Assembly: GCA_035221665.1 (NCBI GenBank)
Contig: CM069158.1
Location: forward strand, 33,418,001-33,482,000
Reading direction: 5' to 3'
Length of the DNA: 64,000 nucleotides
From: Okamejei kenojei
Lineage: Eukaryota
The notes beneath the pieces were generated by a model. That model saw nothing but the letters and a program-made list of their open reading frames with translations. It ran no database searches and had not been told where the DNA came from. Below are positions 1 through 64,000 of this stretch, one piece after another. Numbering within the stretch: the stretch's first letter is position 1; each line of letters starts with the position of its first letter. The position numbers were made by a program, and so were the translations under genes.

Positions 1-3000
1 TCCTCCAATTTGTGCTGTGCCTCACTCTGATAGTGGAGGAGGCCCAAGACAGAAAGGTCAGTGTGGGAATGGGAGGTGCTGTTAAAGTGTTTAGCAACTG
101 GGAGTTCTGGCAGGTTTAAGTGGACTAAACAAGGGCAGGATTTGTAGTTCCTTGGTTATTTACAGGCTGTTGATTGTGGGAGTTAGCTTTCAAAATATTT
201 TCTGCTGGCACATTCCAAAGTCCTATGTTTCTTGCTGAAGTTTGCACTGGAGCTTGGATCAATTACCATAGTGACATTCTACAGAAAGAGCTAGTTTCGG
301 GGTCTCCTGCACTGGAAGGTTGGAACCCATAACGGAATAATTCATATCATGATAATATGTTAATCCTGCACACAGAATGATCTGCCCTTTGCTGTGGATG
401 TTAATGGATGGATATGCTGTATTGTACTCCAAATTAGCAATATTGTACTTCAAATTGGCAACCAACTCTAGATGAAGGGTGCATATAGAGCGTTCTGAAG
501 TGGCAGGGAGTCAAATCTAAGAGTATTCAGGTCAGCTTTTTTCTTTTGAGACTGACAATTTATTGTTATAAGGCATCTGAAGAGGTTTTTTTTCCATAAT
601 CCCTTTTAATGTCAAAAGGAATGAAAGGCATTTTTTTAGGAATGTCAACTGGGTGTACACCTCTTTCAAACTGGAACAATCAGGTCTTTCAAATAATACA
701 GCATGTTACAGCACGTGTGCATTTCTCAATGTAAAAGACAATTGGAAGTGTTTCAGATAATCTGAGAGCTTTTAGTTTTGCAACATAATATTCAACAGAG
801 CATACTAAAAAGGGGTAGACCTAAAAATACATTAAATCCTGGAGAAGAAGGGTCTCGACCCATTCCTTTTCTCCAGAGCTGCTGCCTGGCCTGCTGAGTT
901 ACTCCAACTTTTTGTGTCTATCTTCAGTATAAACCAGCATCTGTAGTTCCTTGTGTAAGAAGGAACTGCAGATGTCGGTTTAAACCGAAGATAGACACAA
1001 AAAGCTGGAGTAACTCAATGGGACAGGCAGCATCTCGGGAGAGAAGGAATGGGTCGAGACTCTTCTTTAGACTGTGTATCTGCAGTTCCTTCCTACACAC
1101 ATAAAATCTTTTCATTTTGCCAAGGGCTTTGTTGCAGTAACATCTTGTCTGGTGTACACCTACTATTTCTTTAATGTTGCTAACCTTGCAGGAGTAGGCC
1201 GTTTGGTCCTTAGTCCCTGTACTGGTCGTTTTATTGTTCCCACAGCTCTGTGAAGGTTTTGGCATCTAATGAGTGATGCTTCTGTGGGAATTTAAAAAAA
1301 AACTGCTCAAACCAGATAAAAAAATAATTAATGAATGAGGAAATGCTGTTGGTAAACATTCATGAAGTTGTACACCTCCATTAAATTATTTTAAATTTCC
1401 TGCCTCACAAAAAAGTAACTTTAACTTTAGTCTCTCGCCATGTAATCAAAATCTTTTGCCCGTGGGACCAATATAGTAAATCTGTTCTGCACCACCTCCA
1501 AGGCCTTGACTTCTCAATGCGTGGTTTAGCGCAATATTGTATCTGAGGCATAAACAATATTTTTAATCCATTTTACTTTTGAAAATTCGGGTTGGATCGG
1601 CTGCCACCTTTTCAATCAATATATTACAGATAACTTCCTGCATGTAATTATTGGAAAGGCCTTAATGCTGGTCGAACCTGCAAACTCCATCTCCATTTCT
1701 GTTTAATTGTGTGGCTAAGCCTAAACCAGAGGATTAATTAATGAACATTATTTTGTCCTTAAGATGAACCATCCTTGCTTTCACCAAGGTCATCTATTTC
1801 TACATCTACACTGTTAACTCACTCTATCCTGCCTCAGTTTATTTGTTGACACCCTACTCCATCTCTTTCATTTCTAATTCCTTCTTCGGACTAATCTAGC
1901 ACATACCTGCTTGACAGCCTTCATTCAACCGTCTGTAAATTTGACAAACTATCAAAACTGTGCAATTCACCTCCAAGCTCTCACTAAAACCCTTTGCCAA
2001 TCACTACAGTGCTTTATGACCCTGATCAAAGGATGTCTTTTTTTAACCCATTGTTGTTTTTAATCCCTCCATGAAAACTACAACCTCAATCTTCCTGCAC
2101 GATCTTCTAAACATACAAAGTTCCGGATCTGCCTTCTTTAGCATTCACTTCATTTCAGTTGGTTTTTCCTTTCGCTGGCAAGGTGCCAAGCTGTAGAATT
2201 ACTTCCCAAAACTTGTCTGCCTCTCTTCCCTTTGAGATGCTGCTGTCAATTGGTATCACATTTTGTTTGATAATGACCCAGCGAGGCCACATGGGTTCAA
2301 AGCAAAGCATTATAATACATATGAAAGCTTTTGTTGCTTTACAAAGATTTAACATAACTTCCCTTGCTCGCATTATGCCTCTCTTGTAGCATAGGTCCCT
2401 TATGTTTTTATCTTGCAGTATTCCATGTTTGATCTGTCAGCTCCACAGATTGTATACTCCAGGAAGTGAGTTTAACAATGCACCAAAAATAGACACTAAA
2501 AGCTGGAGTAACTCAGCGGGACAGGCAGCATCCCTGGAGAGAAGGAATGGGTGACGTTTCAGGTTGAGACCCTTCTTCAAAATTGCACTATTCGGTTTAT
2601 ATAGCCTCTTCTTGTGATGTATCACTTTACGATTCTAAATTTTAACTACCATGCCAGCCTGGCCGAATAGCCTACTTCCTTCAGAAGGATGTCGTTCTTC
2701 TTGTTGATAAATATATTTTCATAGCCCCTGCAAACTGAAATTATACATTATATAACTGATCGAAGCCGTTAATAAATATCAACAATTAATTTTCATTTTT
2801 TCTCTCTCTCTTCCATCTGCATTTCCTCAAACATCACCTTCCCATTATACTGCTGTTCTTCCATGCAGCGTGGAAACCCAACTGTTCAGCAACTGATTGG
2901 CAAATGGCATACCATTCTGTACTGGTGCTGTTTAAAAAAAGATTTGGAATAACTAGTTTTCTTCTCGAGAATCTTGCCTTCCTTGATTGATTCTTAATAA

Positions 3001-3300
3001 GTAAGGTGATAGGTTACGAGGGGTAGACAGGAATACGGTGATAAGGTTACAGTCAGACAGCTGAGCAGGCTCAGGGGCCAAATGGTATGCCCAGTGCCAA
3101 ATTCTTATGTTAGGTTTTTCTAATGAGAATGGTTCTTCGATGAGCTAAGAGTTTTTGCCTCCTGGAAAGGAGGAAGTATCTAACCTCTGTACATTGCACA
3201 CCACAGCTTGGTGAACGATGCACTATGTGTAATTGCCAGTTATGAAATAGATTTTACTTTTGCCCCAATTTAATTAATCTTTCCTTTTTAATATTTTCAG

Positions 3301-61363: not shown

Positions 61364-64000
61364 ACTCCTGCAGCATTGTGTCTCAGTTCCTGCATCGATT
61401 ACTTGGTTTTAAATCACGAGGCTAGAAGTGGAGATGCTCATAATTGATTGCCCAACATTGAATTCTGTTAGCAACTTTAGGGCGGTGTGATGGTGCAGCG
61501 GTAGAGTTGCTGCCTTACAGTGCCAGCGACCCGAGTTCAATGATGACTCCAGGTGCTGTCTGTACGCAGTTTGTACGTTTTCTCCGGGATCTTTGGTTTC
61601 CTCCCACACTCCAAAGACGTACAGGTTTGTAGGTTATTTGGCTTGGTATAAATATAAATTGTCCCTAGTGCATGTAGGATAGTGTTAGTGTGGGGATCGC
61701 TGCTTGGTGCGGATTTGGTGGGCTGAGTGGCCTGTTCCCGTGCAGTATCTCTAAACTAAACTGTTTAAAAAAACATTCCACTTCCTCCATGCAACACAAC
61801 CCAGACAACATTAAGGCATGGGGTGACGTAATATTTTGATGATATAAGTGCTAGGCAATGGCCAGATTCAATGAGAGAGGGTCCTGTCACTTCCTCATTG
61901 ACTCTCTGCATCTATTCACCTGGAGTTCACCATTGATCAGAAACTCATCTGGGACAGCAGAAAATATTAGTCACAGACTGGGTATCTCCACGACAAGGGG
62001 CTCTCCATTTGCCAAGCAAAGCCATTTCAGCATCTATTACACTCCGAATACACTTCAGAGTGCATTACTCCGAATACACTTCAAAGTATTTATTCAAAGG
62101 TTTGTTTATTGTCACGTGTACCAAGGTAGTGAAACTGGAATTAAGAGTGCAATCAAATACTTCCTTGAATGCACATATGCAAGGACATAGAAATAACCTG
62201 AGAATTTAAAACTTGAAGAACACTAGAGGCCCCGACTACGGGTGAACAGTGGGGAACATCAGGGGAAGAGACTGACTTTGGTGCCTTCCCTCACAGTGGG
62301 AAATTTTGATCCTGCTGTGGGGATGTTTTATGTTGAATTCTATCAACTCTGTTGTGTTCTTTATTTTTACCATGGTTATTTCATTTCACTGTGCCAATTG
62401 GCACACGTGACAAATATTTTTTTACTAACTAACTACTAACTTCATACAACCTAAATATCCATTCCTTCCACTGCTAGCACATTGTGGCAACAAAAATGCT
62501 GCAATTACTCACCTAGAACATCTCCCCAACTCTCTGTGAGGTGAAGGCACCTGATGCTTGTGAATATCAGCACTCGAATATTCCTCTCCAAGTTGCACGT
62601 CATTCTGACTTGTTCCTTTATGATCATGGGTTCAGGTCCTGGAGCACTCTACCTTGCAGCAATATGTGAGCATCTTTATCTAGAAGACTGCAGTGATTCA
62701 AGTAGCCCATCACCACTTTTCAAATCAACCAGGGATTCCACATCCTGAACAATTAATCAAAAATATTCCTCTCTCCATAATGCCATCCACCATCATAGTT
62801 TTGCCTATTAAGCTGTTTATATAATTTTGCATACCTTAGGCAACTTCCTAAATTTGCTTTCTCGTCTGTTTTTGAAAATGCAACGTTGCTACATTGAAAT
62901 ATGAGCCCTTGGGACTCTATGCTAGTTCACATTGCAATGCCATTCCCCAATGAATTTTGCCTGTAAACGATTCTCTCTACATTCCAATCAACTCCACCCC
63001 ACAACTCGTCCCTACACATGAGGACCAATGTAGATTGGCCAGTTCATTTGTATCTGTAAGATGCGGTAGGAAACCCACAGGGTCACAGAGGGACACACGT
63101 TCCGCAGAGAGGAATTTAACGTCGGGAGCGAAACTGGATCACTGACACTGAAGCACTAGCACTACTACCTACATTCCTGTGCCACCCAAATAAATTGGTT
63201 CCTTCATCTAAATCAATATTGTTGAGGCCACAACACTGGGTCTCTGGAACCACATTAGTTATAATCGGTCAACCTGAAATGTACCCTACCACATTAATAT
63301 ATTTTTGCAAATCCAGATGTACCATACCCACTGGTTCCTGGTATCCTTTCTGCTAATTGCATCCTCAATTTAGTCTACTAAAATAACAAAGCAATTTTCC
63401 ATTCTTATGCATGTAGATTTTACATGATTTTATTACGACGTTCTAAATATCCTACTACCTACACAATAATTATTTCCAGCGTTCCAAAAGGAAGATCGAG
63501 GACTACATGACGTAGTTTCCTGTTTTATTTGTCCTTTTCTTTCCATTTATTGTTTCAATATTCACTGGGAAGTTCCAAAATCTGCCAAATTTTGGAAGAT
63601 CACCACCAGTGCTTCTCCATCTGTAGCTGCTTCCCTTAAAACTTTAGAATATAGGCAGTCCAGTCCAGCAGACATGTTAGCCTTCAATTAATTTAGTTTG
63701 GCTCATACATTTCTGCTAATAATAATGTAGGAACTGCAGATACTGGTTTACACAGAAGATAGACACAAAATGCTGGAGTAACTCAGCAGGGCAGGTAGCA
63801 TTTCTGGATAGTAGGAGTTACTTCTATCCAGAGATGCTGCCTGTCCCGCTAAGTTACTCCAGCATTTAGTGTCTATCTTCAGCTAATAATTGTGATTGTT
63901 TTAAATTCCTTCTGTCTTTTTTATCTTTAATTTCTTATTCCTTTGGTATCTTCTACTGAAGATAGGAGGGTGGCACCACAGGTAGTGCTACTGCCATAGT

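Follow-up and report, generated by a model that had tools for sequence, protein, structure and literature searches.

Minimal type I hammerhead ribozymes are found in the pseudo-long terminal repeats (pseudo-LTRs) of metazoan Penelope-like elements (PLEs) (Cervera and de la Peña 2014, PMC4209133); the example tested there showed no cleavage as a monomer and weak cleavage as a dimer. PLEs that encode an endonuclease (EN+ PLEs) are described as leaving inverted, 5'-truncated pseudo-LTR copies and carrying a tail of 30 to 40 bp (Arkhipova et al. 2013, PMC3846280; Craig et al. 2021, PMC8557442). The protein of PAc, a Poseidon PLE of the green anole, is reported to cut and extend both DNA strands; in vitro, two start sites of reverse transcription downstream of the hammerhead define an optional tail, uncut RNA is the main template, and the hammerhead cleaves only with the protein (Frangieh et al. 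2024, PMC11167929). Repeats bearing such hammerhead cores were analyzed here in a 64,000-nucleotide (nt) stretch of the Okamejei kenojei genome (assembly GCA_035221665.1, contig CM069158.1, positions 33,418,001 to 33,482,000; hereafter the window) and across the 2.76-Gb assembly. These repeats are very probably the last 95 to 135 bases of an EN-bearing PLE, likely inserted by its reverse transcriptase (RT)/GIY-YIG protein as very short cDNAs of uncut RNA.

Positions within the repeat are counted from C3, the C of the CUGANGA box (0), with the predicted cut between +27 and +28. Like the metazoan PLE hammerheads of PMC4209133, the motif carries the core boxes including CUGANGA, one extra nucleotide before stem II (an A after A9), a G10.1-C11.1 pair, a palindromic 15.2-16.2 segment (ACGU), and no loop III, which supports the Penelope-type hammerhead proposed in the first-pass annotation of the window. 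Compared with the hammerheads described there, the predicted stem II is 4 bp and helix I is only 2 bp here, a length also given for Drosophila virilis. The motifs in that survey were mostly single and from truncated PLEs, with some close pairs on opposite strands, as is the case here. Features of EN+ PLEs found in this genome included RT and GIY-YIG in one open reading frame (ORF), a pseudo-LTR partial tandem, an optional tail on one side, head-to-head inverted copies, and target-site duplications (TSDs), those shared with the elements of PMC3846280 and PMC8557442 being 8 to 10 bp. The arms differ from the copies in those accounts in being often only ~100 to 135 nt, in being very numerous, and in following a countable rule whereby one long arm is combined with one short arm (81/96 pairs). 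Truncated PLE ends with minimal hammerheads, inverted copies, one-sided tails, and PLE-derived retrozymes are already known, and the family is ordinary as such. Full-text literature searches yielded no paper on the Okamejei repeat family or on a pile-up of 5' ends at a PLE hammerhead; Repbase and Dfam lay outside this search, and a deposited consensus may exist.

A nucleotide profile built from nine arms of the window and one genomic copy detected 26 arms at 20 loci in the window (Table 1) and no match in 524 kb of reversed control sequence. Many of these elements were head-to-head pairs of arms and not one unit. Five TSDs reported in the first-pass annotation were all present (8817/9049, 13 bp; 12702/12809, 10 bp; 22893/23102, 9 bp; 39755/39902, 12 bp; 63715/63882, 9 bp), and a sixth of 8 bp was found at 48395/48502. 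The plus-strand cores that it listed were also located, with starts at 8953, 9810, 12716, 18653, 25483 (very decayed), 48409, and 59860. Its minus-strand cores exist, but the numbers given for them are the low ends, C3 being at 2580, 23002, 25746, 50850, 56679, and 58519. Many decayed versions of the core were likewise present as claimed, but only the core at 12716 was fully canonical with the ACGU palindrome. Three window cores passed a relaxed descriptor, and the CUGANGA half was absent from two of the five TSD-flanked copies (39755 and 63715). A scan of the window with Rfam models, which had been suggested as a check, returned no hammerhead family at an E value of ≤5; weak matches to mir-3923, mir-1420, and psbJ came from the palindromes.

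From a genome-wide GIY-YIG search, 12 regions of 10 kb were taken; 20 other regions yielded whole units. Six of the 12 (L026, L027, L030, L032, L033, and L034) contained an RT/GIY-YIG frame with the repeat just behind the ORF at 98 to 99% identity, so that the link to an autonomous Penelope element sought in the first-pass annotation exists within the same genome. The window copy at 12714 to 12808 was identical to the autonomous end of L027 at 94 of 95 bases. In L026, the Pfam GIY-YIG domain scored above the cutoff and RVT_1 below it (E value of 4e-6; 27 bits versus 29.6); L027 had the same order, RT followed by a C-terminal GIY-YIG domain. DKG and YIDD motifs were seen in the PLE translations, and a PDB sequence search with the L026 ORF gave no matches. 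Between RT and EN, the L027 ORF contained a CX4CxxC linker (CNRKKCNTC). A CX2-5CxxC linker in this position is given as a feature of the Neptune and Nematis clades (PMC8557442), and the linker sequence would place the element in one or the other without separating the two.

Two copies (L146 and L135) were partial tandems of the form pseudo-LTR-ORF-pseudo-LTR with a period of 3,993 nt, i.e., a full unit of ~3.99 kb. The unit consisted of the ORF stop, a pyrimidine-rich 3' untranslated region (UTR) of ~235 nt, the minimal hammerhead, a stretch of ~65 nt leading to a short 3' end, a tail of ~35 nt up to a long 3' end, and the start of the next ORF. The first ATG of the long frame lay near +162; judged by its length, the frame would comprise ~1,200 codons. 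PAc is described as having an ORF that starts at stem II (PMC11167929), whereas here the first ATG follows C3 by ~160 nt and the linker is of the Neptune type. Older variants of the repeat were found 100 to 310 nt behind GIY-YIG remnants at eight further loci (L038, L072, L098, L101, L153, L168, L208, and L228); their UTRs did not align to the young UTR, yet most ended in YAGT ahead of the core.

An exact 47-mer of the young type occurred 37,361 times genome-wide (control, 0). Abundance was also estimated from 44 arbitrarily placed 10-kb stretches (440 kb), which contained 169 arms covering 3.5% of bases, including 30 head-to-head pairs and 106 single arms, together with 13 cores passing the relaxed descriptor for intactness (reversed control, 0). 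Rough extrapolation to the genome gave ~1.06 million arms and ~81,000 intact cores, compared with 4,000 to 9,000 in the richest genomes reported in PMC4209133, the descriptors differing between the two counts. One stub insertion was present three times with identical flanks (L120, L195:5157410, and L206:6080059, in coordinates of contig C1) and was therefore multiplied inside a larger repeat.

The ends of young arms were mapped in the first 100 exact 47-mer matches on contig C1, within its first 6.3 Mb, and 96 were retained after removal of two duplicates of one insertion and two copies with the upstream sequence of another subfamily. The 5' ends of 56 arms lay at -7 to +7, those of 29 lay upstream (-12 to -1523), and those of 11 lay at +10 to +31; none of the 96 fell at +26 to +30, around the cut site (+28). 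Before this cleaning, there were 4 ends per base at the edge of the core versus 0.03 to 0.04 at -21 to -500. Two-thirds of the TSD-bearing single arms (22/33) also had 5' ends at -7 to +7. The 5' ends of stubs graded upstream into the PLE 3' UTR and ORF, and one long copy (L136) started at C3 and ran into the ORF. TSDs were found in 33 of 67 noninverted young arms, compared with 18 of 1,340 shuffled pairings, with lengths of 8 to 25 bp, mostly 8 to 17 bp. The 3' ends were bimodal, with 70 at +87 to +99 and 30 at +118 to +139, corresponding to two sites ~35 nt apart (about +92 and +127), and match the two RT start sites and the tail of PAc (PMC11167929). The pile-up of 5' ends at the core does not figure in the PAc results drawn on here from that paper.

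Head-to-head pairs were taken from all loci collected, a set enriched for young copies. Among 118 such pairs, 96 could be classified, as 81 long + short, 9 long-long, and 6 short-short; under independence, 50% long + short pairs would be expected (P = 2e-12). A TSD was found in 48 of the 118. The two arms of a pair shared the same state at 0.85 of the 16 diagnostic columns (77 pairs scored), compared with 0.52 for randomly paired arms; where one arm was young, the other was young as well in 22 of 23 pairs.

These observations can be joined in a putative sequence of events. The PLE protein would make a staggered cut at the target and begin cDNA synthesis at either of the two 3'-end positions inside the RNA (about +92 and about +127), with ~6 in 10 cDNAs ending within 7 nt of the 5' edge of the core. 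Where both DNA ends prime, one for each RNA site, a head-to-head pair of one long and one short arm would result. The 5' stop is most likely the 5' end of the RNA, at an initiator-like sequence; this putative step is the least certain of the series. Several subfamilies with nonalignable UTRs have YYAGTC ahead of the core, and the internal TATA-less promoter described for D. virilis Penelope (PMC2377424) makes a start site at this position plausible. More ambitiously, and offered as possible rather than probable, the ~1 million stubs may record PLE "strong-stop" cDNAs: transcription would start at an initiator abutting the hammerhead, and a single protein dimer bound to a single uncut RNA would prime both ends of the staggered break at two fixed sites 35 nt apart, so that tail, inverted repeats, and stubs would all result from one two-ended integration with the ribozyme kept uncut.

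Several results weigh against this interpretation. The 5'-end sample covers 6.3 Mb at the start of a single contig and cannot register ends past +33, and the peak is fuzzy, with modes at -3, -1, and +2. Of four long copies extending to the first hammerhead, three (L135, L146, and L151) read through it, and the 5' stop is therefore not absolute. An additional G ahead of the presumed +1 A, as a cap signature, was seen in a first sample (11 G versus 1 A), but by-eye counts gave 50:50 in the first 100 genome-wide matches and 26:25 after by-eye removal of inverted, UTR, and duplicate contexts; because it did not replicate, this signature was not used as support. The RNA material consisted of assembled contigs only, and those of 4 of 24 public runs, compared with L146:4260-8240, gave no information on starts or ends; summed contig depth was far higher over the bin containing hammerhead and tail, depth here being a measure of neither expression nor copy number. 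All translated PLE copies had broken ORFs, the longest open stretch being 674 amino acids (aa); 15 of the 96 classified pairs combined two long or two short arms, and stubs may be remobilized in trans.

The alternative that survives best retains the same origin and attributes the pile-up of 5' ends to a block of RT by folded or protein-bound hammerhead/tail RNA, or to a 3' splice site before the core, instead of a transcription start. It accommodates the read-through copies and the unreplicated cap signature, and a pyrimidine tract with YAG stood ahead of the core in all subfamilies seen. In D. virilis Penelope, an intron, and not a start site, is reported to abut the 5' end of helix I (PMC4209133), and in the minimum free energy (MFE) fold the tail is base paired to the core, although weakly (z score of -1.5) and with no covariation support. 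However, TSD-flanked stubs share no upstream exon, the one spliced junction tested (a donor-like site at +160 joined to -1) had no copies in the loci searched for it, and more noninverted arms ended at -3 than at -2 (5 versus 2), which is unexpected for an acceptor at -2/-1. A block or splice site was judged somewhat unlikely as the source of the pile-up.

Priming from both target ends has a competitor of its own, in which head-to-head pairs arise when a single cDNA or RNA folds back and primes itself, as proposed for Adineta PLEs (PMC3846280). The shared subfamily state of the two arms and the loop-less palindromes at some junctions (L126) would follow from folding back. This origin is nevertheless unlikely, slightly more so than a block or splice site as the source of the pile-up, given that both outer ends of the pairs lie on the two fixed sites with TSDs at the frequency given above, that a few pairs combine different subfamilies (4/77 at a concordance of ≤0.6, although these may be nested insertions), and that the PAc protein is reported to extend the two strands of the target DNA in vitro (PMC11167929).

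The hammerhead motif itself was examined in 214 arms. Core columns other than CpG showed 0.89 to 0.97 identity, compared with 0.86 to 0.98 for invariant flank columns, and the CpG position G12 had decayed to 0.71, as for copies that decay neutrally. Between the consensuses of six subfamilies, one core column of 12 varied, compared with 30 of 89 downstream columns (P = 0.065), a test that is biased because the clusters were defined on noncore columns. The motif may plausibly be under selection in the source elements, and in the stubs it would be a passenger. The predicted active-like fold lay 3 to 5 kcal/mol above the MFE for monomer and dimer alike. At L146:4510-4655, the end of the tail was complementary to the 5' box of the hammerhead, and the two paired in the MFE fold. 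A helix of 8 bp formed by the tail and sequence around +47 did not vary among the six subfamily consensuses. In this folding model, pairing between tail and core could possibly act as a switch that keeps the ribozyme off.

Animal non-LTR retrozymes, described in a preprint (Li, Clavereau, and Pollet 2026, 10.64898/2026.07.22.740005), likewise derive from PLE ends, are noncoding, and carry type I hammerheads, and one chondrichthyan data set of that preprint may bear on the novelty of the present family; as characterized there, they are head-to-tail tandem units, whereas the stubs here stand alone or head to head, and their ends bear no relation to the cut site. The first-pass annotation had regarded the repeats as an independent, nonautonomous, retrozyme-like family processed by dimeric hammerheads and moving as a unit, and this is very improbable: the minimal core with its extra A, G10.1-C11.1 pair, and palindrome, the low variation of core columns between consensuses (by the biased test above), the excess of stubs over ORF copies, and the origin of known retrozymes from PLE ends speak for it, but none of the 96 mapped 5' ends lies at +26 to +30, around the GUC cut site, only 2 direct tandem pairs occurred among 211 arms in 524 kb, the stubs match the autonomous end and grade into its UTR and ORF, older variants follow GIY-YIG remnants, G12 decays like any CpG, and the hammerhead fold, with its 2-bp helix I, is not the most stable one. 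Rare stub-only lineages may exist.

The value of the family is statistical and bears on how PLEs integrate and what the hammerhead does, given ~37,000 exact young 47-mer copies with fixed ends. The long + short rule and the pile-up of 5' ends lead to precise predictions for RT start sites, the 5' end of the RNA, and two-ended priming. The ~3.5% of the genome made up of PLE stubs might be mistaken in annotation for hairpin DNA transposons or, in view of the weak mir matches, for microRNAs.

Table 1. PLE-derived features in the window (positions within the 64,000-nt stretch)
Feature	Position	Strand	Details
PLE GIY-YIG coding-end remnant	3..101	-	76% aa identity over 33 aa to L027 ORF (tblastn)
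Composite	844..1097		Two long-tailed arms (plus, 844-950; minus, 962-1073) and a plus-strand tail remnant ending at 1097; GAAAC half absent from both cores
Single arm	2481..2583	-	Core C3 at 2580 mutated; short 3' end
Head-to-head pair	8817..9061		Minus long arm + plus short arm (core 8953); within 13-bp TSD 8817-8829 / 9049-9061
Single arm	9808..9894	+	Core at 9810, G12 mutated
Young single arm	12702..12818	+	Core 12716-12743 a canonical minimal hammerhead, with cleavage predicted after 12743; 3' end short; 10-bp TSD 12702-12711 / 12809-12818
Arm, core at 18653	18600..18764	+	Pyrimidine-rich stretch upstream resembles PLE 3' UTR (by-eye comparison)
Head-to-head pair	22893..23110		Minus short arm (core 23002) + plus long arm; within 9-bp TSD
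Very decayed arm	25482..25585	+	Profile E value 1.5e-4
Decayed arm	25624..25749	-	Core at 25746; long tail
Tail-only fragment	30915..30966	+	
Long arm without CUGANGA	39755..39913	+	Within 12-bp TSD
Decayed head-to-head pair (long + short)	42654..42842		
Decayed single arm	48395..48509	+	Core at 48409; 8-bp TSD
Minus short arm (core 50850) + short inverted remnant	50750..50877	-	
Core-less fragment	51921..51982	-	
Head-to-head pair	56593..56780		Minus short arm (core 56679) + plus long arm
Long arm without CUGANGA	58029..58137	-	
Long arm	58399..58522	-	Core at 58519; stem II variant
Decayed arm	59857..59936	+	Core at 59860
Core-less head-to-head pair (long + short)	63715..63890		Within 9-bp TSD

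A second GIY-YIG retroelement family was encountered in the same genome (L023 to L025 and L031, at G000 C43:9-29 kb, C111, and C1:189.38 Mb), with more matches near the starts of C11, C17, and C14. It forms ~6.3-kb tandem arrays, often near contig ends, in which a 759-aa RT/GIY-YIG frame follows a separate ~600-aa frame without a Pfam match. This family (L023-L025, L031) did not match the hammerhead repeat, and L023 to L025 were rejected as its partner because no repeat match was found among the matches listed.

Other features of the window included an N-terminal exon of Med16 in an open frame at 39086 to 39682 on the plus strand (Pfam E value of 1e-30), and the repeats of the window probably sit in intronic or flanking DNA of the Med16 gene. 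An actin-like exon or fragment was found at 59054 to 59479 on the minus strand (Pfam E value of 8.5e-10). Two overlapping frames at 36972 to 37714 (plus strand) resemble a Tc1-type transposase, and the segments at 4762 to 5448, 27940 to 29415, and 32195 to 32602 (all minus strand) resemble RT fragments of long interspersed nuclear elements. A tRNA-like match above the Rfam gathering score (37.9 bits) was located at 45864 to 45935 on the plus strand and is possibly the head of a short interspersed nuclear element.

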